From the NCBI GenBank assembly GCA_002245135.1, contig NGBS01000327.1, positions 1 to 64,000 of the forward strand: a stretch of DNA of 64,000 bases. The letters run 5' to 3'. The DNA comes from Proteromonas lacertae. Its lineage: Eukaryota. Shown here one piece after another: positions 1-35,237 of this stretch. Every line of letters starts with the position of its first letter. Position 1 is the first letter of the stretch. The translations under genes and the position numbers were made by a program. The notes beneath the pieces are model-generated. The model did no database searches. It saw only the letters and a list, made by a program, of their open reading frames with translations, and was not told the DNA's origin.

Positions 1-804
1 TTATTATTATTACATTATTATCATTGCTATTATTTCCATTGTTGTTATTATTGTTATTATCATTACTTCCATTGTCTGCATTTACTAATACTCCTCTTAC
101 CATATTATCATGTCTATTTGTATAACATTTTCTGCTCTTATTTCAGCTGCACTATTATAATGTTCATTATTCATTATGTTAAAATCATTTTCTGGTTCTG
201 GATGTCTTTCATCAATTTCATAATGAGTTTTTTTTAATTCTTCTATTTTCTAGTTGTGTAACACCTATTCTCTCTTTGGGTGTAAAACAACAAATGGATT
301 TCTTTGTAATATAAAATCAGATGCCATACACAATTTATCAATACCATCTGCTATAACGAGTTTTAAATATGCCACATTCTCTTGCATTAGCAGAGTTTTC
401 ATTTCCTGTTAATTTGGATTATAAGCTTCTAATGGTTTACCATGCGCAAAAGGACCTGTTACAAATAAATTTTTACACCAATTAAACATTTTCATATGTT
501 CATCATATAAATTATATATTCTATTAAACTCATGATTTGGCCAACCTATTGGAATAAGTCTATATTGAATAATTAATGCTTTGTTAAATCTTTTCACTTC
601 TTGATCCACATAATTATTTAAATCATCTTCACTTATATTTTGAAATGGTATGACTTGATTCCTTCTATGTCTTCTTCTATGTCTTATTCTGCTCATATCA
701 ATAGGTACATTGTCTTCATTTTCTTCATCTTCATATTCATCATCATCTGTGGGTCCATCTTCTTCATCATCATTTGAATTGTTAACTTGAGGTTGCGGTT
801 GCAT
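1..804 (-). CDS. Hypothetical element protein with acidic N-terminus; apparently frameshifted and continuing past 409 toward the window start
   Basis: ORF 409..804. After the stop, coding-like sequence continues in shifted frames (LTGNENSANARECGIFKTRYSRWY; HYEIDERHPEPENDF), then an Asn-rich tract. Confidence 0.45.
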
Positions 805-883
805 ATATATATAACAATATATAAATTAAAGAATAATTCAAATAAAATTATATTTTAATATTTCTCAACAATTATAAAACATA

Positions 884-1855
884 ATGCAACCAAAAGATAG
901 TAACAACATATTAGCTAATAGAAGAACATTGTTCTTAACAACATCAGACTATAATGAAAAATTATCTAATAAATGGGTTAGATGTATTAATACTCCAACT
1001 ATTACTGAAAAATATCAATATATGAGTTTAATTACTGCAGTTATTCCAAATAACTTCTATACAGTACAAGATGAAGTAAATGATCATATTCTCTTTAATT
1101 TCACTTACTACGAATGCATAAATCCAGATAAAACAAATCCAGCAGAATGGGAAAAACCTGAGAATCAGCTTGGACCTTATTATAAAACTATTGATGCTAA
1201 AATACCTCAAAGAAATTATACTGGTAAAGAATTATTAGAATTTTTTAGTAATAAGTTACTATCGTTAAGTTTTGCAGAAATAGCAGGTGCAGCAGGACCA
1301 TTGCCAGATGAAGATCTTTCACAAAACTATCCGTTTCGTAAAATAGATGATCAAACAGATATACTTCAATTTAGTGAAAGTTCAGAAAATAGATTACACT
1401 TAAAATTCAAATACTTAACTCATTTTGGTAGATTATATTTCACAGATTTTAGCATTGAATTCCCTAACTTAGTTTATAAGTTATATGGTGTAGATGAGAT
1501 GAACAAAAAGTTAGATATTTATCATACAGCAGCTCCAATTGAAGCATTTTTTAATAATATTGATATAGAATATGACAAAATATTGCCTAATCAACCGTCT
1601 TTAATTTGGGTGTCATTCATACAAATTAGATGTGACTGGGTTAATAGTGGTGAGAATTCAATGGTTTTAGCTAACATACCTGTGAAAGATCTTAATACTA
1701 ACTACACCACATTCACTAATCCACAAATTGAATGGACAGCTAAGAAGATGCAATATCACGAATATCAACGAATGACTATATCAGTCACACAACAAGATGG
1801 TTATGCAATTTATTTAAAAAACTTACCTATTTATTTTGAGATTATTTTGTATTAA
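884..1855 (+). CDS. Minor capsid protein (penton, single jelly-roll) of Polinton-like virus
   Basis: 323 aa. N-terminal LFLTTSDY...SLITAVIPNNFYTV and C-terminal FIQIRCDWV...VLANIPV...MTISVTQQDGYAIYLKN...FEIIL match the PLV/polinton penton pattern. Adjacent to MCP and ATPase. Confidence 0.75.
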   Translation: MQPKDSNNILANRRTLFLTTSDYNEKLSNKWVRCINTPTITEKYQYMSLITAVIPNNFYTVQDEVNDHILFNFTYYECINPDKTNPAEWEKPENQLGPYYKTIDAKIPQRNYTGKELLEFFSNKLLSLSFAEIAGAAGPLPDEDLSQNYPFRKIDDQTDILQFSESSENRLHLKFKYLTHFGRLYFTDFSIEFPNLVYKLYGVDEMNKKLDIYHTAAPIEAFFNNIDIEYDKILPNQPSLIWVSFIQIRCDWVNSGENSMVLANIPVKDLNTNYTTFTNPQIEWTAKKMQYHEYQRMTISVTQQDGYAIYLKNLPIYFEIILY

Positions 1856-1908
1856 TAAATTTCTTGCTATTTTTAAGTATTTTTTAATCTTTTAAAATAA
1901 CATAAATT

Positions 1909-3330
1909 ATGTCAATCACTGCTATACCTAATTCACAAAAGCATGAAAGCATTGTGCCAGCTTACATACCAATTTACAACCATATTTTAGTTACTCCAAA
2001 CCAAAGCAGGAATGAGACTGTTTTATCTTTAAATTCAAACAGTGATGCTATTACATTTGAAATATCTGGTGATAATTGTGTTAACTTATCAAAAAGCTAT
2101 TTTGAATTCATATTAGATTATACTACAGGTCAAACTAGAGCTCATGCTGCTGCAGATTCAGGTAATTGGGATATGCCTTTTGTACCTAAAAGAGATACTA
2201 GTGCAAATAATTTAGATAAACTAACATTGAAGAATACTATGAATTTTGGTACATTAAAAGTATACAACAAAACAGGAACTTTGCTATGTGATTTGGATAC
2301 TAGTTATAATGAATATAGAGATTTAGCTCATGAAATTGCAAATCAATTTCCTTATGATTTAAAAGAACCAGATTATTACAAGAAAATATTTGATGGTTTA
2401 GGATTTAATACTGCAAATCAAAAAATAGGTGAAAATTTATTATGTCATTCAGCTAATACATTAAATCCAAGTGGAGGTGTTCAAAATTATTATGTAATGC
2501 AAAATGGTATGACAGATACATTACATGGTCAAATACTGTGTAGATTTCATTTTGCAGACATATACAATACTATTTTAGCTTTGAAGAATGATATTTATTT
2601 TGGTGAAGTAATATACATACAATTCACATTTGCACCTATAATGAATTGGGTTCATCATAATGATGGAGATAAATATATAAACCAATGGCAAGCATTTTTA
2701 GGAATGAAAATAGTTAATCCTCATCTTTATGTTTGTTATAACAAAGATCCAACTTGCAATGCCAATACCATCAATTATTCAACTCATCATCCTATTGACT
2801 TTACTGATTTTAACATAGTTCAAATAACTAAAGATCCTATTCCAGGTAATAGTACTTTTAACTATAACTTCAGTATTAATAGCAGCATTGGAAGTTATGT
2901 TAAGTTTATATTATACAGAGCATACATAAATGATGCTTATATAAGAACTATAGTTCCTTTTGATAAAGAAGAAGATAGAATTAGATGGCAAATTAATGAT
3001 TTTGTCTATACTCCTGATTATTTATATCCTGCAAAATACCAAACTTGGGAATATATGAGAAATATTATTCAAAATACATTATATGAAAAATGTTCAGCAT
3101 ATTCATTCCCTTATAGATTCTTTGATGTATTAAATTTCAGTACTGATCGATTAACTGAATTAAAATTAAGAGCTGGTAAAGACTTAGCAAGTGATTTAAA
3201 AATTACTTTGGATTGCTCAAATCATGATTTTGATACTGCAAAAAATACTTATACAATTCATCATAAATTCTATATTATTACAGGTAAACAATTAGTTATT
3301 GGACCAAGAGGTGTTGAGAAAGTAGTATAA
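1909..3330 (+). CDS. Major capsid protein (double jelly-roll) of Polinton-like virus
   Basis: 473 aa, beta-rich, N-terminal ITFEISGDNCVNLSKSYFEF like PLV MCPs. Lies between penton and packaging ATPase. Intronless. Confidence 0.72.
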   Translation: MSITAIPNSQKHESIVPAYIPIYNHILVTPNQSRNETVLSLNSNSDAITFEISGDNCVNLSKSYFEFILDYTTGQTRAHAAADSGNWDMPFVPKRDTSANNLDKLTLKNTMNFGTLKVYNKTGTLLCDLDTSYNEYRDLAHEIANQFPYDLKEPDYYKKIFDGLGFNTANQKIGENLLCHSANTLNPSGGVQNYYVMQNGMTDTLHGQILCRFHFADIYNTILALKNDIYFGEVIYIQFTFAPIMNWVHHNDGDKYINQWQAFLGMKIVNPHLYVCYNKDPTCNANTINYSTHHPIDFTDFNIVQITKDPIPGNSTFNYNFSINSSIGSYVKFILYRAYINDAYIRTIVPFDKEEDRIRWQINDFVYTPDYLYPAKYQTWEYMRNIIQNTLYEKCSAYSFPYRFFDVLNFSTDRLTELKLRAGKDLASDLKITLDCSNHDFDTAKNTYTIHHKFYIITGKQLVIGPRGVEKVV

Positions 3331-3401
3331 ATAACACTTTATTATTGACTTCTATTTTTATTTTTTGATTTCTCACTACATAATATATATATACACACAC
3401 T

Positions 3402-4163
3402 ATGTTTAAATTTGAAAAAATAAATAATATACAAATTGAACCTGTTGATGGTGGTGAGTCTTTTGATCCTAAGAAAATTCTGGGATATGATTACTTTAAT
3501 GAGCCTTTCTGCAATATATTTATTGTAGCTCGTAAGAACAGTGGGAAAACCACTTTGATATACAATATATTAAGACATATTATAGATCCAAAATATAAGA
3601 AAAAACAACATGTACATTTTTTCGTAGGCACAATTAAACAAGATAGGATATATGATTCAATTAAAGAGTTATTAGATTATAATGAAATTAGTTATGATGA
3701 AAACGATTCATTATTTGAACCTTATTCAGGAGATAATTTAGTAGAGAAGTTAATGAAATCAATTGATGATACAAACAAAGATAATTTTGAGTATGCAGAA
3801 CATATTATAATATTTGATGATCTTAGTTTAGAGTTGAAAACAGCTAATATCATACCAGTATTAATGAAAGAAAATAGACATTTAAAATCAAAAATTATAA
3901 TTAGTAGTCAATATATTACTGATATAGTACCTTCAGCAAGATCACAAGTAGATTATTGTTTAACATTTTATGGATTGAGTAATAGAAATTTGTTTGACTT
4001 ATACAACTCATTGAATATATGGATACCTGAATATGAAACATTTAAAGAGTTATATTTAGCTGTTACTAAGCCACAATATAACTTCTTATATATTGATAAT
4101 GTTAAAAAAGTGTTTAGAGCTAACTTTAATATTTTGATTGAAGATCATTCTGAAGTTTCTTGA
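3402..4163 (+). CDS. A32-like (FtsK-HerA family) viral genome-packaging ATPase
   Basis: Walker A IFIVARKNSGKTT, Walker B IIIFDDL, Arg-finger/sensor KENRHLKSKIIISSQY, IVPSARSQVDY, C-terminal YNFLYID. Confidence 0.92.
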   Translation: MFKFEKINNIQIEPVDGGESFDPKKILGYDYFNEPFCNIFIVARKNSGKTTLIYNILRHIIDPKYKKKQHVHFFVGTIKQDRIYDSIKELLDYNEISYDENDSLFEPYSGDNLVEKLMKSIDDTNKDNFEYAEHIIIFDDLSLELKTANIIPVLMKENRHLKSKIIISSQYITDIVPSARSQVDYCLTFYGLSNRNLFDLYNSLNIWIPEYETFKELYLAVTKPQYNFLYIDNVKKVFRANFNILIEDHSEVS

Positions 4164-4207
4164 TGTTTTTATTAATTTTGTTATTTTATTGTTTATTAAT
4201 TCAAAAA

Positions 4208-4993
4208 ATGTTTATTGGGGAACGAAATACTTCAGATATAAATATTGATACAGATAAGCTTGCTAAAGATATAGCTGACAAAATAAATATACAACCTACT
4301 GATCCTGATACTATTGTTAAACCTATTAATAATCATACTGATACTCAAATAAATAATATTATTACACCTGTTAATGATATCAAAACTACTACAAATACTA
4401 TATATGGTAAATGTCAAGAAATATATAATGTTGTAAATAATAGCTCTGGAGGTAGTACTACAATAGTTAATAATTCTGTATCACCTAAATTATTGCATAC
4501 TGAATATACATATTGGTCAGTTAATTTCTATATATTTCAAGATGGTTCCATCAATCAATATGAATCTACTGTAAAAGTACCTATAAAAATTCAAATGTTT
4601 GAACATTTTATGAGAATCAAGATATACAATGGCCTTGTTTTAAAAAATCATGATGATGGTTATGGATTTATATTATATCTAGATGACAATCATGTTATTA
4701 AAGCTGAACCAGGTAAAGAAGATTTATTGCAACAATATTATAACAAATTATTAGAAACATACTTTGTAGATGGTAGTAATGGAATATACTTCCCTATACA
4801 AGGTGTAATAAATGAAACTTCACAACCTGCAATTAATGATTATGGATGTTTTTGGCCTATATTAAGAAATAATAATAATAAATGTAATCTTTATATAGAA
4901 CGAAAAGGTCTTGATGCATATTCATATCAAGCATTCCCACCTCAAGTTATTATAACAGAGTGGATGGATACAGGTGTTACAGAACCATTTTAA
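4208..4993 (+). CDS. Hypothetical viral protein, possibly fibre/spike
   Basis: First ATG at 4208 (MFIGERN). N/T/I-rich repetitive N-terminal shaft, SSGGST linker, beta-rich C-terminal domain. Co-oriented with capsid genes. Confidence 0.5.
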   Translation: MFIGERNTSDINIDTDKLAKDIADKINIQPTDPDTIVKPINNHTDTQINNIITPVNDIKTTTNTIYGKCQEIYNVVNNSSGGSTTIVNNSVSPKLLHTEYTYWSVNFYIFQDGSINQYESTVKVPIKIQMFEHFMRIKIYNGLVLKNHDDGYGFILYLDDNHVIKAEPGKEDLLQQYYNKLLETYFVDGSNGIYFPIQGVINETSQPAINDYGCFWPILRNNNNKCNLYIERKGLDAYSYQAFPPQVIITEWMDTGVTEPF

Positions 4994-5128
4994 TCTTTAT
5001 TATGATTATTTTATTATGTTTATTATAAAATTTATTATATTTTTATTATATTATATGATTTTTATTAAATTACGCATATTTTTAAACCCTGTCCCAAATC
5101 ATTTTAAGATAAAGATTCGTTTTAAAAT

Positions 5129-5608
5129 TTAGAGTATGTTTATCGTAGTTTGATCATTGTTTCCTTTAACTTCTTCTTGTGCTTCTTCTTCCTCATCATC
5201 ATCACTATCATCAAATATATAATTCTTCTTTACATAATGTTTCAACATAGGATTCTTCTTCAAATGAACACTTCCCATTCCTTCAGGTAGTGTTAACCAT
5301 TCAATATACTTATCAAACACTGCAAAATAATGTCTATTTAATCCTCTTGGTTTTACTGATGGTTTAATATCGAAAAGCATCATATAATATCTCTTATCAC
5401 TATACTTTGTCCACATCTTTTGATGGCAAATAGCACAGAATTCATTATAAGACTTTATCTCTTCCTTAGGTAATGGGCTATCTAAAACTGCACTTATGTT
5501 ATGGTTAAAATATAAGTAAAACTTACATGTTCCACATATACACTTATCTAAATAATCTTCATTATTTCTAAATGAACAAAAGAAAGCAAAGTTTACTGAA
5601 GCACACAT
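5129..5608 (-). CDS. Hypothetical Cys-containing protein with acidic tail (element-borne)
   Basis: 159-aa intronless ORF with CxCxxC and CxxC motifs. Confidence 0.5.
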   Translation of the reverse strand: MCASVNFAFFCSFRNNEDYLDKCICGTCKFYLYFNHNISAVLDSPLPKEEIKSYNEFCAICHQKMWTKYSDKRYYMMLFDIKPSVKPRGLNRHYFAVFDKYIEWLTLPEGMGSVHLKKNPMLKHYVKKNYIFDDSDDDEEEEAQEEVKGNNDQTTINIL

Positions 5609-6249
5609 ATTTATATATTTTTTGATAAAAACGGTTTTTCTAAAATATCAGGAAAATCAAAACTGTTTCTTTTTTCTGTTTATAACAACAGTTTCTCGTC
5701 AGAATTTCGATTTAGTAAAAAATATAGAATACTGTAGATAATTCTTTAAATATATATTTTTGACACTATTTAAATTCTTTTGAATGTTTTTAACTACACT
5801 ATATAAATCCATAAATAAATTGATAAATGAAAAAAAAAACCAAAAAAAAGTAAGAACGCATTCTGTAGCTTGGCCACCACACTATTTAATCACTAAGTCC
5901 TAGTCAGGCTACACAGGACACGCTACTTACTTACATAGAAATACATTTCTTATTCTATAAAGTAGCTACCCTGCCGGGGTAGAACAGGTAGCTACCTATC
6001 TATTTATACACTTTATTTCTACTATCCTACTCTAAAAACTATTAAAAATATAAAAATAAATTTTAACCCATAAATTTATTCACACACTAAAATATATAAA
6101 GAATTTTAAATTCACCGCTTGCTCCAGTATAACCCGTACCAAAAACTAATTCACACTCAAATCGCTTATTCTTATCTGTAGAAGGCACCTAAGAATAGTC
6201 TGGTACGGTTTACCCACATACAGTGATATTCTTACGGTTATACATATAT

Positions 6250-6360
6250 ATTGGAGATAATACTAACATTAATCGAACCATTACACCACTAAAGTATATT
6301 GTTGTTAAAGCATAAGTTATTAAGAAGATTTTACCTTCATTGTTACTCTTAAAACATAAA
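6250..6360 (+). repeat. 111-bp exact direct-repeat copy of STT3 coding sequence (20637..20747)
   Basis: attggagataatactaacatt...ttactcttaaaacataaa is identical at both loci, offset 14387. Confidence 0.95.
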
Positions 6361-9300
6361 ATAAACAATTCACTATTTTATAAAGAGATTCTTACAGTTT
6401 CTAACAACGCACTTCATTTTTTCTTAATACAGCATCTGATTAAACTAGTTTGAATGATGTTGTTTTTAAATTCCTTAGATGATATGTGTTACTTGATATT
6501 CTCATCCGATTTAGAAGTATTTTTAGTATGTATATACTGATAGATAAGTGAAAGAGTAGTTAAGAGTAGTAATGAAGTAGATTTGGTTTTATGGCAAGAG
6601 AATGAATTTAAAACACTGAAGATAATAAATGTAAATAAAATAAAAGAGAAAATGATATTGAAATTCTGTGACATCCTGTCACAGTTACAACATTGCTGTT
6701 CATCCTTTATTTATCCTTCTAGAATTCTTCAGGTGAACAAGTGTAGTGAATATATGGTAGTTTGTAGAGAATATTATATAAGAGATTTAGAAGAGATAAT
6801 TCAAAGAAAATCCTTGTCAAACGATGATACTTGTAGTGTTATATGTTCAATATGTGACTATGCGGTGTTATTAAGCGAATATGATGTAATAATAAGTAAT
6901 TTGAAGAGTTCGAATATAGTATATGGAAGAGATGAAACAATAAAAATATGTGATTTGTTCTTAGATTTAATAAGAAAAGAAGAAGATATGAAGATTTACG
7001 ATGTGTGTTTCAAAAGTCCAGAAGAATTGAAAGGATTAGAATATAATGAGAGAAGTGTGATTTGGTCAATTGGATGTATTTTATATGAAATGATTTGTAA
7101 GAAATTACCATTTAATGAAGATAATAATATGATTAAAACGAAAGAAAATATAATGAGATGTAAGTACAATATTGATGTAGAATGTGATGAAATGTTGAAA
7201 GAAATGATAAATAAGATGTTAAACATGAAAAATGAAGATAGAATGAGTTTAAATGATTTGACAAAAGAAATGATTAAACTAAACGAGATATTGAGAGATG
7301 AAGATAATTTTTTATTGGTAATTGATGAAAGAATAGAATTATTATTCAATAATGATTATTTAATAGATATTTCAATATTTAATGTAAAAGCAGAATATTA
7401 TCTCCATAGAAAAGAAAGTATGTATATATTATATTATTGATATTATTTGAATAGAAATTGGTGATAATTTGATAGAATGTTACAACAACAAATCTGATAA
7501 TAAAATACTATCAATATTATTGATGATGAAATTATACAAAGAAGATAACTTAATAAAAGATAAACTGAAATTTCAAATTCATCACAAATGTAAAAGAAAT
7601 AAAAATAGTAATTTAGATGAAATGATATTTAATATTGATGTTGATTGTATTGATAAAAAGATAATCAGAATTTATTCAAAATGTATTTGTTTATGTAAAG
7701 AAGGAATGGATTATTTCTTCAGAGTATTAAAACTAACGAATTTTGCAAAACTCAGATTTTGTATAAATCTGATTTTTTTGATTTTTTAGATGATGCTGTT
7801 ATTCCAGCTCAACATCAATCATTATTCGGTTCTTATTTTTATGAATTATCAAATTTTCAAGAATTATATTTATGCAAATGTAAAATCACTTTTCATTTCA
7901 TTAAATCATTTGTGAAATTAATTCCATTCATGATGAAATTAAAATATATAGATCTAAGATGTATTTAATATTTTAATTACTTTGATATAGCTAATCCAAT
8001 TGGTCCAAAAGGATTCAAAATGTTACTTCCATATCTGCAGTTATTAATTAATGAATATAATGAATTGAGACTTTATGATATGAATTTGAATGATAAATCA
8101 ATGATATTATTATCTGAAGAATTATACAAACATTCAAATCTAGAAGAAATAGATATTGTAAAGAACAAAAATATTCATTCATCAGGATTAAAAGCCTTAT
8201 TCTCCAAATTTCCTATATCAAAAATTTCATTTGATTTTAATAGAAGTAAAGAATTGCTGGTTGATAAAGACATTCCAAAATTACTTAGATATATAAAATG
8301 CTTTAATATGAATAATTCTGAGATTGATGATAATATTTTCAAATCATTCATTCGCATAAGAACAAATGAATTGAAAAAGATAAAATATTTATATTTGAAT
8401 AGTATAATTTGAAATTTCTCTATTATTTAGATAATATATTAACATATGAAAGTGTAGACTTAATCATCAATAATTTATCTTCATTACCAAATCTTAAACA
8501 TCTTGAGTTAGATGGAAATGAAATAGGAGATATGGGAATGAAAATATTATACCCTCATATGCATTTATTGATAGATAACTATAAAAGAATGAAATGTTCA
8601 AGTATAATAATTATTATTAAACGTATAATAGAAATGGGATTATCTTCAACTGGATTGAAGTATTTAGTTGATGGCTTAAGGAACATTAACAAAAGGATTT
8701 TGCTTGAAATAAATGATAATAATGTTGATTCAGATGGAATAACATATTTAATGAATTATATGAAAGAAAATAATAATATTGAAAAGTTAGTGATTTATAG
8801 TATCATGATTTTATATTTGTTACTAGATAATGCAATTGGCAATGCTGGATTTAGATTATTGTAGAATAAACTAAACATATTAGAATACTATGGAGTAGTA
8901 GATTTGAGTAATATATCAATTGATGATGAAAACGTAATATTATTAGCTAGTAAAATGAATTTAATTGTAAATTGTTACAAAATAACTCTAAATGGCAACA
9001 ATATCCGAATGAATATATCTGACTTAGGCAATACAGGGACAGGACAGGGACATGTCCTAGGACAAATTTAAAAAGGACGTCCTTTGAAGAAGCCATTCTC
9101 CTAGGATATTAAAATTGGCAAAGTACAAAACTTGATTTTTTAATATTTCAAAATTATTTTCTTTTATGCTTATCTTATTTAACTTAAATAGTAATAGAAC
9201 ATAACTATTATATAATATAGAATCATAATTGAAATAATAATAGCAACTTCGTCAATAATTTCTATATAAACAATTCATAATCACTCTCTTCTTCATCATC

Positions 9301-10576
9301 ACCTTCATCATCTTCATTATCATCCTGATATTTTGTGGATATTGTTGAAAGTTTTAATCTCATCATACCATTTATTAACTCCAACTTTAATTTACTTCTT
9401 CTGGTATTTTGTATATAAGATTGTATACTAAACGAACGTTCGATATAAGAGCTAGATGAAGGAATAACTTTGAGAATTGAATAAACTTTATAAAGATTTC
9501 TAAAATACCTACCATATGATTCAAACCAAATGTCATTTTCCATTGTTTCTATATATTTAACGCCTTTATATTTGCTTCTTGTAGAGAAACAATCCAATTC
9601 TTTTCCAACTTCTTCATCAAAAATTGAATCAAATTTTGATAACATAAATGTTATTATTCTTTCTTTTTCTTCTTCAGAAAAGTCATTTGAATCATATATG
9701 TTTAAATATTTTGCGGTTAACAAGACATCCATATCAACTAAGTGTAATTCCTTCTCTACAATATTTGATACTTCTTCCTTCTCTTCGCTACATAAATTTA
9801 TGAGATCAGCTTTTATATTCTTAAAAATATCATAAGCACATGATAAGTTGCTAACGTCACGAGATAGTGTATGTACCTTTTCACATACGTATGTGCAAAT
9901 TCTTTCTATTTCTTTTATATCCTCAAGTTCACTTCTCTTTAATAAATTGATCCTAATTAGCAGCTCAGAGTAACTAATAATATCTTTAAACATTTTGCTG
10001 AAACTTGACCATCTGGTTGAGCATCCTTTCTGTATCTTGATGTTATGCTTTAACTCTTGGAAGACTACTGCTCTAATAGTTTTTGAACTGTTTATGAGCC
10101 TTACAATCTCACAACATGAAGAGTATACTCTTTCATATCTTTCTATTTTGGTTATTATTTGTCGAATTATAATATTCAGGATGTGAGCGGTGCAGCCTAT
10201 AGCTATTACTGGTTTATCTATCATATTTTGAATAATTCTAGAAGCTCTTATCATTACTGGACAATTATCTGTCATTGATGCACATATCTTTTCAAAACTA
10301 ATTTCGTTTCTATCAAAACAATCTTTTATTAGTTGAACTATTGTTTCTGCACGTCCATCTCCATTCGATTCAACTGATTCTATGAAATAAAATCCATTTT
10401 TTCCTTTACAGGCTATGTTATAAATACTACAATGACTGATATCTTTATATTCGTCTACGACCAGAGTGAGGTTTTCTTCTTTTTTAATACTATCTAAGGT
10501 CTTTTTTCCTTCTAGTATAATTGTTTCTTTTATTCTTTTTGTACCCCAAACTTTAAATTTTGTCGGAGCTACAATA

Positions 10577-12935
10577 CAGTCAAACCTGTATAACTTGAAG
10601 TAATATAACTCGAATAATTTACATTTTTATTTTATTATATGATTTTATTTTTTTGTTATTTTTACATGTTCTAATCTTTTATAAATTACTATTACTATAA
10701 TATATTCTATCTATATTATTCTGAGGGTCATGATCTTCTTAAATGTCTCTCTGTTTGAAATTACTATATTTTCTTATTCTATATCAAAAGATTAGTAAAT
10801 AAATAAACCATTACAAGAAATACTATTCATAAATTCTTCTTGCTATGATTTATTTTCTATAAAAATGAGACTATAAAACGAATATTATTTTGAAACATAT
10901 TTTGATTTTACTAATTCTAACTAATCTTAATGACTTAACTAATTTTATTTGTATATTTCTAGTTGAAATAGATTAATTTAATTTTTTGATTAATATTGAG
11001 ATAGATTGAAATGAATTATGTTGAATCAATCACTTAGAGTATATAAAGATTAATAATTCATCACTTTATTAATATCTAATCACTTATATCCATAATATAT
11101 CATTTTTATATCCATAATTTATCACTTAGTAAAAAGTGATTAATCAAGTGATTGATTTCATTTAATAAATTCTTAACATGTTGAACAATTCAAAAAAAAG
11201 AAGTGGTACTCAATTACCCTTACACACTAAAGCCATGTTGCTTAGACAATTAGAAGCTAAGCGTATAACAAGGTAGGAAATATGTCAAAAATACTCAGTA
11301 AAACAATCAACTATATCTACATGGCTTATGAATAAGGATAAAATCATGAAATTTGAAGGTAATAATAATCATTAAGTTGTTATAAATAGATAAAGATGAT
11401 AATATATTTAGAGAGAGAAAATCAAAGTATCCAGAGCTGGAAAGAAAATTATTGAATTGGTATAACTCAGCAATATCAAAAATATATATAACTCACATCC
11501 CAATCACAGAGTCAATTTTATTATACAAACTCAATCAATTATCAGAGAAGAAGTTCCATATCTCATATGTTCAAAATTTAATGAAACGTAACAAACTGAG
11601 TAGCGTAAATCTTCATGGTGAAGCGTCATCATGCCCAAATGTTAATATTAGTAATGTCCGTAAGATTATTTCTTCTTATAAACCTATGTTCGTATTTAAC
11701 ATGGATGAAAGTGGTTTATATTACTCACAATTGCCTAGAAAATGTGTAATTGACAACCATGAAAAGAAGAACTTCAAAGGATTCAAAATAGCAAAGTCAC
11801 GTATTTCAATCGCAATTACAGTAAATATGGATAATTCAATTAAAGTACCAATTCTTTATATTGGAAAATCACAAAAACCTTTATGCTTTAATGAAAAACC
11901 TAACAATTACATTAATCAATCCAATGCTTGGATGGATAATAGAGTTTTTAAATACTATATGGATAATATTTTTCTTCCCTCAGTCAAAGATATTATTAAA
12001 AACAACAAAGTACTTTTGGTGATGGATAATTGTGCATCTCATCCTAGATCATTAATTGGAGCAGAATATGATAACATTCAACTACTTTTCCTTCCGCCTA
12101 ACTGCACAAGTCGTTATCAACCATTAGATATGGGAATTATTAACAAAATAAAAAGTAATTATAAAACTGAAATTTTAAAGAAATGTGTAGGAAATATTGA
12201 AAACTTTGAATTAATAAAGAATATTCAAATTGAAAACAGCAAAGGAAAAGGTGGTATAGCTTTATGTAAGCAACCGAATATAGCAGATGCTTAAAAAAAC
12301 AACAGTTATTAAATGTTGGTTGAAATCTTCATTACCATCTGAAGAACAAATAAAAGAATTAAATTCCATATTACAATCAGAAAATTGTAATATGAATGTT
12401 GATGATGATGAAGAAAGTCAATGCGAATTAAGCCAAATAATTGGTAAAGTAAATGATATTATTATAGAAGATGGAAATACAAATTCATTTATAAATGCAA
12501 CTTCTCTTTTTAGTACAAAATCTATAAGTGAGTTGTACCCATTTTATAGCTTTGAAAATGAAGATGGTTTTAAAGTAGAAGTTGTTGATAATGTAATTCA
12601 AGAAAATAGTAAAGAAGATTCAAATAATGCAACCTGCAAAACCAAAAGAAGAATTGATAATATGTCTAATGAAATAAATAAAACTAAAAAAAGCAAGATT
12701 AACAACATCTTCGAATAATCTTTAAAACACTTATAAAATCTCTTTGTATATCAATTATTTTTAGTGTATTTAGTATATTTATTCAAATGTATAAAATAGT
12801 AAATTATTATCATTTTGTTTCAACATTTTATTTGATTATAACTCATTTTTCAAATAAACAAGAAGCAAAAAATATAACTCGAATTTTTGTCCGTTTCTTG
12901 AAAATGAAGGGGTTTGAGTTATACAGGTTTGACTG
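10577..12935 (+). mobile_element. pogo/Tigger-like (Tc1/mariner superfamily) DNA transposon, nested
   Basis: Perfect 19-bp TIRs CAGTCAAACCTGTATAACT, TA duplication at 10575-76 and 12936-37, subterminal AATATAACTCGAAT copies at about 10602 and 12871. Confidence 0.95.
11178..12718 (+). pseudogene. pogo/CENP-B-like DDE transposase, degraded
   Basis: HTH (EICQKYSVKQSTISTWL) with an in-frame TAG, FNMDESGLY, NAWMD, LVMDNCASH, LPPNCTSRYQPLDMGII; further breaks near 11370 and 12290. Confidence 0.9.
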
Positions 12936-14954
12936 TATCTCGAAAACTTTTCTTTTCAATTGCATGGAATGAGATACTATTGCAATTATGAATCTAATAA
13001 TTCTCATATTCAACTCTTGTTCATTAATTTGTTCTACAACAGCTAAGTTAGTTTGTACCAATTTATTTTTGCATCTAGAATAAAATAAATATACTATACT
13101 TAGCCAAATGTCTCTTCAAGTGTGTTGAATGTTTAATAATGTATTCTTTGCAACGTTTACACATTACTCTGGTAGACTTTTCATTGTTGTATCTTTTTTC
13201 TTTTGTTAAATCGTAATAGCTGTATATTGCGCTTCTAGGTTTAGCTGGCATTGAAATGCAAATGTTTGATAAAATCAAGCTTTTGTTTTGTTTTGTTTTA
13301 ATTGAACTTAAACACAGAGGTTTATATATTAAAAAAAACACAGTATAGATAATATACATCAAAATTAGTACAAATAATTAAAAATAATAAGAGGACAGAG
13401 TTGAGGGACAATAAGAGGACTGTAGGGAATTTTGAAAAGTTTCAGCGATAGAAAAAGGACATAATAAGGGACAGATTAACAAAGGACATCCTTTGCAAAA
13501 GTCAGGAATGGATTAAGATCAATTTGTTGCAGATCATTAGAAAATGAAAATTATCCATTTATAGAAATGAAATGTTTAGCATGGACAAATGAAGAATTGA
13601 AATATTATTTGGATTATTGTATTAAAAAGAAAAGAAGAGAATGTTTTAGAAAATATGATTTATCGAGTAATATTATTATAATATTAATTTTGTAATGAAA
13701 TAGATATGAATTTGAATGATTCTCACATTTCATTAATTAAACAGATTAATTATAAAACACTTGATTTATCAAATAATAAATTAAGTTATAATGGATTTAA
13801 AGAATTGATGCATCGTCAAACAAGAGGTGTATGGAGTATAATAATATTTAAAAATGAGATTGGAAAAGAAGGGATGAAGATAATATGTAAATATTTAAAT
13901 ATATTTGTTGTTGTTGAAAACTTACAGAGTGATATAAAATCATTGAATATTTCAAGTATTATATGAAATGACTTTTAATTTTGAATAGATATTGCGATGA
14001 GCGAAAGAGGATTAAGATTGTTAATAGAAAAATTAAAAGATTATACTCCATTAGAGAAAATAGACATATCAGGAAATAAATTAAATGAAGAAGGATTAAG
14101 ATTAATGAATGTAAATAAAGAAGTATTTGACTATTTAGAAGAATTGTCAATAACAGTAAAAGAGAATATAGATAAATCCGTATTAAAATCATTTTTATAC
14201 ACATTTTCGACAATTGAAACAATCAACTTAGATGGCATATCAGAAGTAGAAAAGAAAGAATTATCTCAAGAATTCTTCTACATTATGTAATAAATTTCAT
14301 TATTATTCTTATAATTTCTCATTCATTCATTTACTTTGTGTTAATCAAAAATGACTATATTCAGAAATGTGAAAACATTTAGATGTCAATGTCATAAATA
14401 AGTAAATTCATAACTTTGGAAGTTTAAAGTTTATGAGTAAACGAAAGGCTAGAATACATTTCCTATTCATTGTAACCTGTCTATGCCATAATAAAGTATG
14501 TAGAACAGTCGATTGTGTAGTAGAGATAATATTGAATGTGATGAATGTTGTAAAAACTGTAAAGAAAAATACACTCCTTTACAACAATACAATTTTGTTC
14601 ATATTCTTTCAATATTTATTATTATTCAACTATTATACACATCAGTTAAACAACCAATATATAAAGCAGAGATAAGTAGAAAAAACGTTTATAAAGAGTT
14701 GCTCATGAGAGAGAGGTATAATTCCAACTAAATAAAATGAAAAAGAAATGATTTATTAACGAAATTTTACTTCTCATCTCTTTCTACATCATAACAATAA
14801 TTACTTTCAAATTTATTTTGATCAAGCATTTAGCTTGATAATTCTTTTTGATTGATTTGATTGGCTATTCTCTCAATCAATTGAATTATTCATAGCTCGT
14901 TTATTCGGTATTTTCATCTCGTTTATATATATAATTTATTTTATAGAAAGTGAT

Positions 14955-17900
14955 ATGAGTAGTACTGTAAGTAAAGATAAAATGGTCAGAAAATCAAGCG
15001 TTGTGTTAGATTTTGATAATAATAAAAGAATGAAATTAGAAGAAGATAATTTTGTGAAGATAATGAACAGCTTGGTAGATGATGATAAAGATTTTTTAAG
15101 ATTTACAGATGATAGTGTTAATGTTTTTCAATTTCCCAAAAGAATGATTTTGAAGAGATCGTGTTACTTACAAATGTATAAAGATATTATCAAATTAATG
15201 AAGAGTTATGACTCTCCAACGATTATTATAAGTGGACAACCTGGTATAGGTAAAACTAGTTTTTTGTATTACCTATTACATTGTTTAAAGAGTGATGATA
15301 GTTACAGATATATGGATGAAAGTAAAACAATAAAAAGAGTAATTAATGGTATTTACGTGGTAAAAGGAAAGAAAAATGGTAATGAATATGATAATCAAGT
15401 ATATAAACTAGAAAAAGACAAAGTATCTATTATTAAAAATGACCTGGCGAATGTTACAGAATCAATAATAATAGTAGATACATTTAGTGATGAATATAAA
15501 CCAAATAATATTGTTATATCAATAAGTTCACCCGATGAGGACAACACAAAAGAATTCCAAAATAGAAACGATAAAACTAAATTATATTTCGAGACATTAA
15601 GTTATGAAGAAGTAGAAAAATGGTTTGATAAATGTATAGATATTGACAGAGATGCAGAATTTAAAGAAATATGTGAAGCTTATGGTAATATTCCAAGACA
15701 AGTTTACTTCCATCATTTATATAAAGAGAATTATGGTAATAATAGAAATTATTGGAAATATTATCAGAAGTTAATAGATGGAGTTGTAGGTACAATTGGT
15801 TACAATAATTTTGTTGGTAATTATATGGAACAAAAAAGATTAATCGAAAATAATGGATTATTGAATATAATATTAAAATATGATTATAAAGAAGAAATGA
15901 ATGCTTATTTAGGTCATAAAGTATTAGTACCAAAAGATCATTTAAAATTCATATCTGAGAAGGTTGAAAAATACATAGTGTATAAATTCTATCCACCTAA
16001 AAATAAATCTGAATATGAAGAATTATGCAAATATTATAAAGAAATTAAGAACGATGATAAAGAAATGAAAAGAGTTGCTATGAAACAAATGATATCATAT
16101 GAATTAAGCATGGAAAAAATAAAATTGAATGCAAGAGGAGATAAGAATTTTCAGTTGAATTATGAAAAGCCAATCTTAGTTCATCATCCTGAAGGTGCTA
16201 AACATTTTATTTATTTAATATTGGATGAAAATAATTATTTTGATCTAATAATGAATGGGATATTTATAAAGATATTCTTAGATGGTGAGAAATTAGAAAC
16301 TGATGAAACAAGAATAAAAGAATCAATCAAAGTATAAATAGTCTATATTTATGTAATATAATGTAATAGGAATATAATAAAAGTGAAAAATGCAAATATA
16401 AGTATTGTGGTTTAAATGAAAATCGAGAAGTAGAAGTAAATGAAGTAAAAGTAGAAGAAGAAAGAGGAAGAGAGGAAGAAGAATTAGAAGTGATTAAAAG
16501 AAAAGAAGCATCTGAGAATCCATCATCTGCACTATGTAAACTACCAGCAGAAAAAGATTTTGAAGTATTTGCCGATATAGATGCTCGACGTTTTTATTTA
16601 ATGAGAAAATGTTATTATCGAATTTTGAATGAAATTTATCCTGAAGGTATGAAGCTAGATTACAATCATCAAAAGAACTATTTAATATTTGGCCAAGCTG
16701 GAATAGGAAAATCAATATTAGCGAAAGTTATAAAAGAATATATTCATGAAAAAAGGAATGGAGAAATTAGAATAATACATATAAATAAAAAAGGAAAGAG
16801 AATAGAAGGTTATAATGAAGATAAACTAGACAAAGATTATATATTAATTTGTGATGGAGGTTTAATAGGAGAAGATGATTATGGTGATGCAAAAATGATA
16901 ATACTATTAGCTGATCCATCTGATAAAAAGTATAAAACATTTCAGAGTAAGAGATGTCCTCTGGTGATGTATATACCTCCATTTACAAAAGAAGAAATCG
17001 AAGAAGTAATAATTCTAGAAAATCCCCACAATATTAAAAAAACACAAAATGCAAATCATTTTATTAATAAATCTGAATTAACAGAAAGTTCAGCAGCATT
17101 ATCTGGAGATATAGATGGTTATAAAAGAAGAATAGAATTATATAGAAAGAATTACGAATATTATGGAGGTGTAATTGGAAATAAAGAATGTGATGAAAAA
17201 ATGATTAAAGAAGAACTTACTAAAATGAAGAAAGATAATAAACTAGAAGACATAATTAATGGAATTAATGTATGTTCTCTTTCGAAAGGTTATAATAATA
17301 AAATATTAATATATGAAACATGTGAAGATGTTACTGAATCGAATCATTTGACATTTATATCTGAAACAATTCGACAAATGTCCAAAAAAATATTATTCAA
17401 AATTACTTCCAAAGAAGAATGTAAAGATATGATGAATATTTTATTTAGTTCTACAAATGGAAGTATAAAAGGATGTATATATGAGAATGTAATGATCTAT
17501 GTACTTAAAAACAATGAAATATTTAGAGAAAAAGTAATAAAAGATATGTGTAATTCAAATGAAGATTTAAAAGAATTAATTATAGATAATATATATAAAA
17601 ATATAAAACCTAGAATGACAAAAATCAGGATAAGAAATGATTTTGACAATATAGATAAAAATGTTAAAGTAGTGAATGTTAAAGATGATGTTGATTTAGA
17701 TACAAGAATAAAAAGAAAAGAAATGAATATTTTCGATCTAAGTTATGATGGAGGTTTTCCTGACGTAGATGCATTGATTGGTCCTATCGGCATTCAAATT
17801 ACAGTAAGTGAGAGACATGAATTATCACCCGAAATGGTTGTTATTTTAAAGAAGTTATTTAAAAAGTATAAAGGTAATAGATATAATCGTATTGGTTTAT

Positions 17901-18127
17901 TCTATGTAAGTCCACAAGAAAATGTTTCTATAAATACAAAGAAAGGTAGAGATGTAGATGCATTTCCATTATGTTTTAAAAATGTTCTTGATAAAGATAG
18001 AAATGAAATCAAAAAATTCAAAGAAAAAGAAATAAAAGAATTAATCGATGAAGCAAAAAGTGCAAGAAAAACAATATTTATATCATATTCAGAATTATTA
18101 ACGTATGTTCATAATTTGAAAGATTAA
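14955..18127 (+). CDS. Crinkler/RHS-type protein with two P-loop NTPase units and a C-terminal restriction-endonuclease-fold domain (2 exons)
   Basis: GQPGIGKT and GQAGIGKS Walker A motifs, SSPD/ADPS sensor regions, C-terminal FPDVDA...IQITVSERH. GT-AG intron 16332-16369 joins the two ORFs in frame. Confidence 0.72.
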
Positions 18128-19765: not shown

Positions 19766-22022
19766 TTATTCAGAAGAGAAATTTGGTTCTTTCAACACTC
19801 GATATATTCTCACTATCCAATGTTCACTTGTTAAAGCCTCTTCCAAATGATGCAATTTTATATCTTTTATTCCAATTTCACTGTTTCTTGCTCGATCATA
19901 TCCTTGACTTATTTCAGCAAATCGATAATAACTTAATTTATACATCAAACAATTCTTCATCACATCAGTTGCACTATTATCTACTACATATTGATGACTT
20001 GAACTATAATAATTATCTTCTTGGATTTCATCAGGATATACACCTGCACCTATTCGAACCATCCATAAGAATTTATTTATATCATCTCCTGAATAACCAC
20101 TTAAACCACCAAATATTATTAATACATAATCTACATCTAAAGATTTCATTATTGGATAAGCATCATCTTCACTGGAAGCAAATGCTCGACCTACGGTAGC
20201 TATGTGAGTATTATTCCAAGTATTATTATCAACTAACACTGTTCGATTAGCTATAGCTGTTATTTGATAACCATAATCCCACCAACTCATTATCTTTGCA
20301 TCATCTTTTGTATTCATTCTTAACCAATAATATGCTTCACGGAAATCATCAAATATTCTTTTATTTTCACCTCCTCCTGCAGCTAACACGATTGATGGAC
20401 TTGAATAAGCACTTGCAGTTACCCAAACACTATGTAATCCAAAATTACATAGAATAAAACTCATAAATATTATTACACCTATTGATATTGTCTTTTGATG
20501 AGGAATTTCTTCATTTTCATTATTCTTTTTCTTATTATTGTTGTTATTATCTTCATTATTATTATCATTATATAATACAATACTCATAAACTTTGTCATT
20601 ATTTCACTTACATATATTCCTCCTAAAATACAAGCAATTGGAGATAATACTAACATTAATCGAACCATTACACCACTAAAGTATATTGTTGTTAAAGCAT
20701 AAGTTATTAAGAAGATTTTACCTTCATTGTTACTCTTAAAACATAAATATAAACCACTTGGAATAAAGAATACTAAAATATGTAAATCAAAGAAATAACT
20801 TGACCAACTGGTAGGTTGATGTTCTGATACGGAAGCAATTATTGGAATATGAGCTTTGGCATAAGTTGGATCTAATAAACTATAAAATCTTCCAGTCCAA
20901 GGAGCTAAGAATCCAGTAATATTCATTATTATAAATGCTATACCAACTATTGAAACTGCAAATACAACGATGGATTTACACAATATTATAAAGTCTTCTT
21001 TACTTACTAATCCTTTTATATAATCAACAAATGCATAGATTTGAATTATACCAAATACACCTAATGCACCAAGACATTCACTACTATAAATTGGTTGAAA
21101 TCCAACAAAGGATATTTGCATCGATAATAAAGTACCTAATGCATAAAATGAAGAATATGTTATATATAATCGTTTACTATATCTTCCACATATTAATAGG
21201 AATAAAACATGTAATGGAATTATATTCATTATAAACACATATCCACCCCAGGCACTTACCATATAGAAATACCATAATGCTGTTATTAATGAATATATTA
21301 AACTACCATTATTCAACGCTTTTATCCAATAATAGAAAGTTATTATTAATGCAAAGATTGCTACACCTTCATTATCATAACTACCAGCTACTGAACGAGA
21401 TATATAACCAGGCACCATTCCCACAAATGCAGCTGCTAATAATCCACTACTTTCAGCTTTTCTTTTATTTTCTTCTTCATCTTCCACTGAAGATTTGTTT
21501 GAAGATTTTGTTATATTTTTTCCTAACATCACTTCTCTGGTTAATAAATATGTCACAATTGCTGTATTAGAAGCCATCCATGGTGCTAGAAATACACAGA
21601 TATTTCTGATATTCATTGTTATATTCAATAAATTCACTAAATAGTATAACACAGCTGCTGTTGCCATTAAACCAGGATATATTGTTCCACCAATAATACG
21701 ACCTAATGGATACCATGCATGATCATCAAACCAATTGTGAAAATTGTAAAAACCTTCATTAGTAAGAAACTTAGTTGTTCGAAAATTGAAATATGGATCA
21801 AACTCATGAATTACACTTTCAAATCTTAAAACTGCAAATAATCTCATCATAAATGCTATAACAATAATAGTATGAATTTATAGATATACCCATGATGTAA
21901 ATTAAACCTAAAATAGCATATCTTAATACCCTCTCTTGGTCTTCAACTGCTATGCATGACAATCTCTTTTTTAAAGAGGAAACTTTATCAATTTCAACTC
22001 CTTGAGGTTTTGTTTTAGCCAT
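19766..22022 (-). CDS. STT3: Oligosaccharyltransferase catalytic subunit STT3
   Basis: [40 protein letters not shown] motifs; one short GT-AG intron near 21860-21890. Confidence 0.97.
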
Positions 22023-29548: not shown

Positions 29549-29672
29549 TTTTTTACTTTTACTCTTTGAAATAGTTTGTTATGCATTTTCATTTTCTCCC
29601 TCATAAAACAAAACAAATTTGTTAATCTTGTATTGTGCGGTTAACTCTTAAACAAGATTAAATGTACTTAGT

Positions 29673-30836
29673 TTACCAGTCTTCATCATCACCGAATAAA
29701 CCACCAACATTTCCAGTTTCTTCTTCCTCTTCTTCTTCTTTCTTCTCTTCTTTCTTATCAGTCAGCAGCAGCACCACCAGCAGCTGGAGCAGCTACAGCG
29801 AATGCAGATGGATTAGCTAAATAGTTAAGATATGGTTCAGCTTTTTCAAAAGTATAATCAACTTTTTCATCAGTGCAAATACCAACTAACATTTTAAAGG
29901 CATTGTTCAAACTGTGTGGTAATGAAGCTAATGTTGGATAGTTAATTTCTAAACTTAAAGCAGCTACAGTTCTCATAGATTGTAAGAAGAATCCTTTAAT
30001 ATCATCTGGTGTTAAATCTAACACTGCTGGATCAAATAATGAACCGTTATCATATACTTGAAGAATAGTCATACCATAGGTGAATGGATGAATATTCAAT
30101 TTATCTAATAAAGCAGCTTGACCTGGTAATACCTTTTCACCTTGTTTTACCAATAATACTGGTGAAATAATTTCAATTTGTGCCTTTTGAATCTTTAGTG
30201 GCAATGTTTAATGCTTGGAAGAATGAGGTTTGACCTGGATCACATCCAGTTGGACCTGGTGGTACCATAACATCACATGGAGCAATTGTACCTGTTCTTG
30301 CTGGGGCTGGTTTCTATAAATACATTATTAATATATAAGAATATTTCATAATATATATATATAATAATCAGAGCTTCTTAAAAGGACATAGATTTTTATA
30401 TATGCTCATCTTTATTCACTTTAAAAAAATCATCATGTTATTATTTATATTATATATATATATATATATATATACCTTGTTAGCAAGAATAATTTCTCTG
30501 ATCTTTGATAAATCTCCTTTACAGAATACTAAACCAATGTTTCCTACAAGGTGATGAGCTAAATGCTCTAATGGATGAGCAGTGTGGGTTTCATTTTCCT
30601 TTTCTTTTAAGTAATCGTGTAATACTTTTCTCATTAAAGTCTATATATTAAATTATATTATTATATACGTTCTTTCCCATAAGAATAAGAGCTTCACCTC
30701 TTAAAGCTTTTCTGATTTCTTGTAATTGTTGAGAACCTACATTATCAATACCGCAGATGAGGATTCTGTTGTATTCATCGAAGTATTGTCTAAGATCCTT
30801 GTGATACTTTTCTTTTCTTTCAGTAGATAATGGCAT
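29673..30836 (-). CDS. RPLP0: 60S acidic ribosomal protein P0 (uL10); two apparent 1-nt insertions
   Basis: [41 protein letters not shown], acidic C-terminus ending [10 protein letters not shown]; frameshifts near 30195 and 29761. Confidence 0.95.
30361..30443 (-). ncRNA. Intronic C/D box snoRNA, U61/SNORD61-like
   Basis: Inside the ~160-nt RPLP0 intron: box C ATGATGA (30436-30430), box D CTGA (30371-30368), terminal ATAATAA/TTATTAT stem, guide GTCCTTTTAAGAAG complementary to conserved 18S CUUCUUAGAGGGAC. Confidence 0.85.
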
Positions 30837-31714
30837 CTAAGAAATAAATATAATAAAAATGAATTTATACTGTTTATGGCGATTAAAGCTAAAAGTAATT
30901 TAACCTTGAAAAGGAGCCTTTGCTTTTAATCTTATTTAACCGCTATAGATAAATTAAAAATCACAAGAATCATTAAATAGATAGTATTAGGTTCATTAGA
31001 ATTGCACAAGATATTCATAAGAAAAACAAAAAACAAATAAAAATGAATAGATGAGTTAAAAAATGAAATGCAAAAGAAGAAATATAATTCATACCAAAAG
31101 TTATTAAAAATTTCTTTGATAATCAAGAGAATTTTTTATTTTATCTAATAGTTCATCATAGATTCATTTATATTTGTTGCTGTTGTAAATACATCAATTA
31201 TCAACATTAACATTATCTCTTCACAGAATATAAATAGAATATAAGTGAGATTATAACATTGTTTCTTGTCAAAATGTAGTATATATCTAATATATCTCTA
31301 AAATATTGCTTGTAAATTCTGAAATTAATGAAATCTAGGTGATTATAAACAAAATTGAGTATTTATGTTTATAAAGTGGTGTAATATTCACTTTCTTCTC
31401 ATATATATGAAAACTATTACTTCCATAATTTGTATTTATGATTTTTTCATACGCCTAATACAAAAAAGTCAAATGTCATTTCGTTCATTTGCTTAGCTGT
31501 CATAAATATTTATCACTATTTCAATTGTTACATGTGAAAAAAGTATTTTAAGAGTGAAAATGGATGATAAAAACATCGACTAACACTTCAAATAACTAAA
31601 ATGCCAAACTGCATTGAAAATTGTGATTTTTTTTTAATGTATTTCAATCATCTCTTACTTTAATTACCTAGAAATCATCTCAATTTCTTTAGTAAGTAAC
31701 TTTTCCTTTGTCCA

Positions 31715-33612: not shown

Positions 33613-33749
33613 GTCTGTGTTATTGTTGTTATTTTATTATTATTATTATTATTATTGACATTATAGTATTCTGTTTTGTTTTGATAATTCAAGAATAAAA
33701 TGTTCTAAAACGGTTATATTTTTGAAACATTCTATATTTGAAATATTCA

Positions 33750-35237
33750 ATGCTTGCTAACATATTTTCAGTCACAAAAAGGAAATCTGTGTATTATTGT
33801 TAATATTTATTTATTTAGAAAAATGGAAGAAGTAGAGATTGTAAATGAAAAGTATATACTAACAACTAAATTATTTCTAGGAATAACAATAAAAAGCCTA
33901 GCATTCTAGCTTTAGACATACAATTAATGGTAAAATTAGGAGAATTAAACCTAGATATGTTTAATAAATTATTAAGGAAGTATAATTCAGGTAAAAATAT
34001 TCCATCATATCTTAATGAACTAATGAACGATCTAATTGCAAAAATGATGGAATATTATAACCATTCTCAAGCTGATGTGGAGAAAGCTATTAAGTATGAA
34101 TATAAATCATATATTTAATAGCTTATTGATAAAAGTTCTTACTATGCCTATATATTCTGCAGTAAACTGTGAAGATTATGAAAACTGTCTAGGAATGGAT
34201 ATGAATCAATTTTCTCAAGAAAAATTAGAGGGTTGCAAATCTAAGATATGTGAAATTACAGATTTATACAATGAAAATAACAAAATTGATAAAAATGAAA
34301 TAATACAAACATACAATAATATTGAGAAAGATATTCTAGAATCAATAGATTCGTATAAATCATCTCTCAGAGAGAAAACAGAACAGATAGAGAAGGAAAA
34401 AAGTGAAAAGAATAATATAGTGAAAAATATAGCATCAAAGTATATTCTTTATTGTAAATATTAGTATAAATCTATCAAGTGATGATGGTTTGGAAGAGGA
34501 AGAAATAAAAACAAGGTTTAGAGAGAAGTGTATTTTGCTGGATGGATTATTGACATATTTATATACAGATAAAGGAATTGAATATCAAGTGCAATATAAT
34601 ACACAGTGTGACAAAATAAAAGAAGTTGAAAATGATATTAAGAATATAAACAATATGATTACATTATTTACAGATTTAACTAATATTCTAAATTGCATAA
34701 ATGATAAATCACTAAAACCAATGACCAATACTGTATAATTATTAATAATATTTACATATATATTATAATAATAGGAAAATAATAATAATAAGTACAAATC
34801 AACAATTACATCTATGATCAATAATATGTTTGGATATTTGAAAATACATTTCAAAGAAGTGGATGAGAAAATTGTATAATAAGCATTATATCTATAAATA
34901 TAGTCAAAATTAATTAAGAATAAAAATGAAATTGAATCAGAAATAGATAATTGTACATTATATCCTCCTAATTATCAATTGGAAATTAAATCTTGTAAAG
35001 AGAAAGAGAGAGACGTTGTATATAATCATATCTTAGTTATAATATAATATGATATAGCTTATAAAAGCAATAAATGAATATCAGAATATACTTAAAGTAG
35101 AACTTATATCATGCGAGAATATAATTAATAATCTTCCAATAGCAGTAGATATAAATTCAAGTTTTTCAAATGAAATGATGAAGTTGGACAATATCAATGA
35201 AGATATAAAAACAATAATTAACGGAATTATTAAATAA
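33750..35237 (+). CDS. Multi-exon hypothetical coiled-coil protein
   Basis: ORFs 33927-34738 linked by short GT-AG introns. Confidence 0.6.

Follow-up and report, generated by a model that had tools for sequence, protein, structure and literature searches.

Positions 1-6249 of the stretch of DNA analysed here (contig NGBS01000327.1, positions 1 to 64,000; hereafter the window, 64,000 nt) probably constitute the right-hand part of an integrated Polinton-like double-stranded DNA virus whose host is a gut stramenopile, likely from the Opalinata. The assignment to the Polinton-like viruses (PLVs) is based on three predicted features of the capsid module, namely a double jelly-roll (DJR) major capsid protein (MCP), a penton protein and an A32-type packaging ATPase. 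The module occupies 884-4993 and consists of four plus-strand open reading frames (ORFs), all free of stop codons. The first (884-1855) is predicted to encode a penton-like minor capsid protein of 323 aa and the second (1909-3330) a DJR MCP of 473 aa. The third (3402-4163) encodes an A32-like (FtsK-HerA) genome-packaging ATPase of 253 aa, recognised by Pfam and by its motifs, while ORF4 (4163-4993; 276 aa, or 261 aa if the ATG at 4208 is the start) is a weak candidate for a fibre or receptor-binding protein. The intergenic gaps are 53 nt and 71 nt, and the ATPase gene and ORF4 overlap at TGATG. When 884-4993 was shuffled 200 times, the longest stop-free frame averaged 80 aa with a maximum of 146 aa. 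The initial annotation, made from the sequence alone, had described four co-oriented, intronless and uninterrupted ORFs here, and our analysis bears this out, coordinates included.

The MCP was examined by structure prediction and by sequence searches. The latter were blank, with 0 families in Pfam, 0 in PHROGs and 0 matches in a PDB sequence search with the MCP alignment; even when Pfam was searched with 29 MCPs, merely two stray single-member families were returned. The seven homologs that were found are 38-77% identical and all derive from Logan assemblies. An AlphaFold model built from eight sequences was of middling quality, with a predicted local distance difference test (pLDDT) score of 55 and a predicted template modelling (pTM) score of 0.54. 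The jelly-roll fold anticipated for this protein was nonetheless recovered by Foldseek, where the best PDB matches were the MCPs of mavirus (E 4.1e-10) and Sputnik (E 3.8e-8). All 23 PDB rows listed were DJR capsid or scaffold proteins, and 118 PDB chains matched at E<=0.001. Against BFVD, an ascovirus MCP ranked first (4e-11) and an uncharacterised MELD-virus protein second (4.4e-10), followed by adintovirus and virophage capsids. Sequence identities were 10-11% to the mavirus and Sputnik structures and 7-14% to the BFVD proteins, and equally good structural matches included ascovirus and iridovirus MCPs. The model therefore supports a DJR fold well, but the structural matches do not fix the family. 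An MCP tree with five of the eight close sequences included did not fix it either, as the window's clade sat on a very long branch and its placement was impossible.

The third ORF had been called an A32/FtsK-HerA packaging ATPase, in agreement with both its Pfam match and its motifs. Pox_A32 (PF04665) matched it with an E value of 6.4e-5 and a score of 23 bits against a cut-off of 22.8, and the packaging NTPase B204 of STIV2 matched at E 0.0024; the phage collection gave 0 matches. Its motifs are ARKNSGKT, IIIFDD, KENRH and IISSQ, of which we take the first to be a Walker A variant and the second to be Walker B. Residues G48, K49, D139, D140, R159, H160 and S169 were invariant in 28 of 28 aligned relatives. 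There were 107 homologs at E<=1e-10, the best being 92% identical. A quick, unrooted tree without an outgroup was built with 99 of these 107 homologs and with sequences from 29 of 84 environmental loci (described below), picked by length. The window protein and 12 Logan proteins formed one side of a branch with a Shimodaira-Hasegawa-like approximate likelihood ratio test (SH-aLRT) value of 99, and a larger group of 36 rows (SH-aLRT 98) added the environmental loci L011, L016, L031 and L041 as well as three Lithocolla proteins.

The evidence for the penton-like protein is more indirect. Sequence searches found 0 families in Pfam and 0 in PHROGs, and five homologs share 36-60% identity with it. 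Residues ~61-236 were modelled well, whereas residues 1-64 and 237-323, the expected jelly-roll, had pLDDT values below 50. Foldseek with this model gave no match at E<=0.001; its top ten rows were all adenovirus penton base or crown domain, with a best E value of 0.08 that is not significant. In the VIA ranking, pentons took rows 1-23 of the 39 listed, with Z values of at most 5.7. These included mavirus (6g41; Z 5.2, root-mean-square deviation 3.9, 118 residues aligned) and Sputnik (Z 3.9), and unrelated folds reached a Z of 3.1 or less. Z values of this size would on their own point only weakly to a penton. The jelly-roll expected of the 323-aa protein is thus indicated just indirectly, by penton-like structural and profile matches, because the jelly-roll part itself lacks a confident model. 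For both capsid proteins, the best matches among solved structures (mavirus, Sputnik and the adenovirus penton base) were 6-13% identical, which denotes a common fold and not membership in those groups.

A comparison with environmental sequences linked the three proteins to one another and to PLVs. Queries with the MCP or with a single ATPase found no loci in viral contigs or metagenomes, and the wider 28-sequence ATPase alignment was needed. It yielded 84 loci (L001-L084), comprising four viral loci and 80 of 195 metagenomic ones (IMG/VR and JGI contigs). Profiles of the window proteins matched 31 ORFs (MCP) and 15 ORFs (penton) in these loci. The MCP gene lay upstream of the ATPase gene on the same strand in 27 of the 29 loci with both, and the order penton-MCP-ATPase was found in 13/13 loci with all three. 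Profiles built from environmental sequences only (24 MCPs and 14 pentons) matched the window alignments at 99.4% for the MCP and 97.1% for the penton (E 6.5e-11), compared with 0.13% and 0.17% in crossed controls, and only the expected ORFs in the window were matched. Such a match is favoured because most of the environmental sequences were picked with the window's own profiles. The environmental PLVs and the window have homologous penton, MCP and ATPase genes in the same order, although identities are mostly 28-38% for the ATPase and only 13-18% for the MCP. They also differ in that the environmental loci have an MCP-ATPase gap of 374-1788 nt with a small conserved ORF in 12/13, which the window does not have; this spacer ORF found no counterpart there, the best E value being 0.3. 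Large fibre-like ORFs were often seen by eye 3' of the ATPase gene in the relatives.

Replication and integration genes were found in some of these loci, only 12 of which reach 10 kb. Seed searches detected rve in four, a DNA polymerase B of the protein-primed type (pPolB) in three and superfamily 3 (SF3) helicase in four, with L016 carrying pPolB, rve and SF3 helicase together and L031 carrying rve and a primase-helicase. A family of large ORFs with an adenain-like protease domain was present in 23/84 loci; neither this family nor rve, pPolB or SF3 helicase had a match in the window. One environmental relative has two tandem MCP genes (L047:2628-5122).

The family to which the element belongs appears to have been counted before. 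According to the accessible tables of Bellas 2023 (PMC10120064, Tables S3/S4), Proteromonas lacertae has 285 MCP hits, all in one unnamed 'new' cluster (column 40, MMPC 25) seen in no other genome there, and an estimated 5.7 Mb of its 52 Mb is viral. The same material reports that ColabFold and Foldseek confirmed a DJR fold for the MMPC 25 representative. We compared the first 400 residues of this representative with the window MCP by eye rather than by a computed alignment and found 52 of 77 positions alike in five hand-picked blocks; the clusters themselves were drawn at a threshold of 25% identity over 30% of the length. The shared blocks include NLSKSY, INSSIG and INDF, and INSSIG is missing from the 24 environmental MCPs. 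Six short motifs taken from the environmental MCPs were not found in the supplement of Bellas 2023 as available. The GC content of the MMPC 25 host, as given in Lind 2025 (PMC12129017), is similar to that of the window. Most likely, the element belongs to this Proteromonas-type MCP cluster 25, a rapidly evolving branch of a group of aquatic PLVs. In addition, a 2026 Halocafeteria preprint (10.64898/2026.07.28.741278) plots, in the part available, Proteromonas PLV MCPs as a known set. While the PLV family, the predicted folds and the adjacent host genes all agree with the integrated virus with a penton-MCP-A32 ATPase module that had been annotated, the further suggestion of an undescribed lineage is largely pre-empted by these two sources. 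The region had also been put forward as the best candidate for a new system, and this does not hold: since PLVs are known in hundreds of protist genomes and the capsid family apparently has been counted, no new system is opened, and the element adds one more member to a known kind and may even be among the copies already counted.

What the present analysis adds is a connection, seen in all three proteins, between the unnamed MCP cluster and aquatic PLVs, together with a right end that abuts a fragment of a host gene. For MMPC 25, the accessible portions of Bellas 2023 (PMC10120064) give MCP counts only; the name Proteromonas occurs 0 times in the main text as available, and the penton, ATPase, gene order, ends and relatives of the cluster are not described in those portions. 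Our search of the literature on Proteromonas and Blastocystis viruses found no paper on the full genome of the element, with subscription papers and preprint supplements outside its reach. The value of the locus is thus that it supplies penton, ATPase and gene order for this cluster and a junction suggestive of recent integration at a host gene. According to the accessible text of a 2026 preprint (10.64898/2026.06.19.733378), no virion of Maverick-Polintons has been seen so far. A gut protist with about a tenth of its genome in such elements would be a usable system in which to search for virions if full-length copies are intact.

A Blastocystis-like host had been suggested, and the data point elsewhere. 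The GC content of the window is 26.3%, nearer to that of P. lacertae (27.0%) than to those of tortoise (21.5-23.1%) or human (39-55%) Blastocystis, as given in the accessible part of Lind 2025 (PMC12129017), and an MCP count is absent for all 10 Blastocystis assemblies in the available tables of Bellas 2023 (PMC10120064). The 3' motif of Blastocystis, TGTTTGTT, was not enriched in the window (8 occurrences versus 6.2 expected). GC content and the distribution of the MCP cluster together argue for a Proteromonas-like Opalinata host. A virus of a related kind, the MELD virus, is known from Blastocystis data, which per the accessible text of Starrett 2021 (PMC8502044) has pPolB and an integrase. 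It resembles the element, by description only, in its gut stramenopile host, Polinton type and divergent virion proteins; the MELD-virus protein matched in BFVD is 14% identical to our MCP and its source virus is unnamed.

The right end of the element is marked by an abrupt change of sequence. The segment at 5641-6249 is non-coding, with no ORF of >=60 aa and no Rfam match, and it stops where sequence identical to the host begins; it is a candidate terminal inverted repeat. Its CpG count (10 observed versus 11.5 expected) lacks the depletion seen in the ORFs. PLV genomes are about 15-40 kb long and bounded by terminal repeats. A search of 1-12000 for long inverted or terminal repeats found none, and Rfam over 1-8000 gave no match and no tRNA. 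The next 117 bp (6250-6366) are a direct copy of part of the STT3 coding sequence at 20637-20754 (99.2% over 118 columns, E 7.6e-53) and read as STT3 on the minus strand. The full STT3 gene (Pfam STT3, E 1.6e-111) is 14 kb away, and a different host sequence follows beyond 6366. This arrangement points to either a recent insertion with rearrangement or an assembly join. The near-identity of the piece to the host gene suggests a recent event, and the simplest biological reading would be an insertion into an STT3 copy within a tandemly duplicated or rearranged segment. A misassembly would yield an identical picture.

The left side of the element is less complete. A minus-strand ORF of 131 aa with an acidic N-terminus (409-804) diverges from the penton gene; it matched no Pfam or PHROG family and none of the small divergent ORFs of the relatives, although L018, L021, L022, L026 and L045 have such ORFs at the matching position. 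Left of it, 1-408 appears to be a broken or non-coding continuation on the minus strand that matches none of the ORFs in the 84 environmental loci. The description of the module as intact is therefore correct for the four ORFs but not for this leftward gene, whose frame is broken left of 409. The element presumably extends beyond the left edge of the window. The initial annotation had also thought the virus possibly still virion-competent, a suggestion that is not supported as it stands: the arm for replication and integration lies outside the window, and the neighbouring gene to the left is broken.

Several observations weigh against a complete, integrated PLV. The putative penton jelly-roll is without a confident model, and its structural scores are below significance. 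The leftward gene has stops in all three minus-strand frames, so that the evidence of intactness is confined to the four ORFs; according to the accessible part of Bellas 2023 (PMC10120064), consensus errors frequently account for such frame breaks where an element is multi-copy. The membership of the window MCP in cluster 25, likely as it is, comes from the comparison by eye. The STT3 piece is just 117 bp with the full gene 14 kb off, and a 5.2-kb inverted duplication is near, and for these reasons the assembly may be mis-joined. Finally, a replicase, an integrase, a protease, a left repeat and a target-site duplication were all absent from the window, which starts inside the element and contains only its right junction; in Maverick/Polintons the duplication measures about 5-7 bp. 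There was no match to pPolB or rve in its six frames, the left arm lying beyond it, and no match to an adenain-like maturation protease, with 883 nt visible left of the penton gene.

Two other origins of the module were considered and rejected. The lack of introns and the viral folds speak against host genes. The compactness of the module speaks against a fragment of a giant virus, as do its closest relatives, contigs that measure ~21 kb at most and carry the gene sets of PLVs. A virophage (Virophaviricetes) in place of a PLV is highly improbable. In the PDB the MCP does match mavirus and Sputnik best, and the 323-aa model matches the penton of mavirus, but the PDB rows hold no PLV capsid, the identity to both virophages is only 10-11%, and ascovirus and iridovirus MCPs match equally well. 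Furthermore, the homologous cluster is placed among the 'new' clusters, apart from the virophage columns, in the accessible tables of Bellas 2023 (PMC10120064). The viral genes could also be real members of this PLV family while their join to the host is an assembly artefact from multi-copy or free viral sequence. Hundreds of copies, and false consensus and frameshifts in such regions, are reported in the available part of Bellas 2023 (PMC10120064). In this window, the junction runs through a short second copy of a gene located 14 kb off, an inverted duplication of 99.87% identity lies near and frame breaks are apparent by eye in RPLP0. Yet the non-coding end gives way abruptly to the host exon at 6249/6250, in the manner of an integration site, the four ORFs run without breaks over 4.1 kb and the GC content of the element equals that of the host (26.6% in 1-6249 versus 26.2% in the flank). 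We consider such an artefact improbable.

More serious is the possibility that this copy is a decaying remnant or a non-autonomous element, in which the capsid genes stay open, the replication arm is lost or broken and other copies provide help. This agrees with an integrated PLV on origin and differs on competence, and the two are compatible. In its favor are the broken leftward frame and the strong CpG depletion of the four ORFs (13 observed versus 72.7 expected), which is milder in the host flank (45 versus 88.8); fragmented PLVs are also common in a related stramenopile according to the accessible part of the Halocafeteria preprint (10.64898/2026.07.28.741278). The CpG loss in the viral ORFs could be either methylation-driven or a matter of codon bias, and a low GC content at third codon positions alone can lower CpG. 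The four ORFs are full-length relative to their homologs, moreover, an ATPase 92% identical exists elsewhere and the near-identical STT3 piece suggests a recent event. On balance, we regard decay or dependence as a distinct possibility that falls short of an even chance.

We propose that the integrated PLV probably inserted not long ago into an STT3 copy that is part of a segment duplicated or rearranged locally. By analogy with what is known of Polintons, PLVs and virophages, the element would excise on induction, and a replicase whose gene lies left of the window would copy it. An icosahedral shell would then be built from MCP trimers and penton pentamers, and the ATPase would pump the linear genome into it, with ORF4 possibly serving as a vertex fibre. 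An integrase, most plausibly of the rve type, would reinsert the element. A bolder version, which we think rather unlikely, is that an actively integrating virus lineage of anaerobic Opalinata of the gut arose from aquatic PLVs with a stripped-down module, without the MCP-ATPase spacer gene and possibly without the maturation protease, and has just inserted into the essential STT3 gene while duplicating or carrying host sequence. If true, a culturable gut-protist host could show Polinton-type virions and virus-driven genome rearrangement directly.

The remaining genes of the element gave fewer clues. ORF4 had no weighty match in Pfam or PHROG. In the Atlas it resembled hypothetical proteins of phages (0.88) and a tail-needle knob (0.78), which are leads only, and its product may be a vertex fibre or receptor-binding protein. 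A minus-strand ORF of 159 aa at 5129-5608 is Cys-rich and is a possible zinc-binding accessory gene; Pfam zinc fingers matched at E 0.07-0.2 only, and the GFA-like match in the Atlas (0.79) is at chance level.

From 6367 on, the window contains host genes with matches to a kinase domain, hAT and DDE_1 transposases, TTL, STT3, RPLP0 and Rit1. The initial annotation had called the host genes intron-rich. Short GT-AG intron-like gaps are indeed present in several, among them the kinase gene (~6540-9000) and RPLP0, but STT3 is one open frame of 703 codons. A kinase and leucine-rich-repeat-like gene (6367-9000) directly follows the STT3 fragment; its frame starts from ~6540, preceded by stops, and may be truncated at the 5' end. 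Since a hAT transposase (PF05699; 9262-10275) and a DDE_1 transposase interrupted by an in-frame stop (11386-12718) are present, the neighborhood is rich in mobile elements. Two ORFs without introns, of 493 and 585 codons, lie in tandem at 14856-18127; they have weak P-loop NTPase matches (nSTAND3, E 1e-4; ABC_tran, E 8e-4) and recall what we presume to be Crinkler-type NTPase-nuclease proteins. RPLP0 (29670-30840, minus strand) has two introns and, by eye, apparent frame breaks that include a stop before the acidic tail, which points to leftover indel errors in the assembly or to a pseudogene. The inverted duplication noted above (32529-37734 and 38253-43457) spans 5.2 kb at 99.87% identity with a 518-nt spacer and several ORFs doubled, and arose either by fold-back duplication in the recent past or through an error of assembly. 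Just outside it lies a short inverted repeat pair (43513-43584 and 47526-47609; 83% over 84 columns). A frame of 2090 codons at 56938-63210 on the minus strand has matches to He_PIG, PA14 and HRM followed by Thr/Pro-rich repeats, and its predicted product is a large surface protein with bacteria-like domains.

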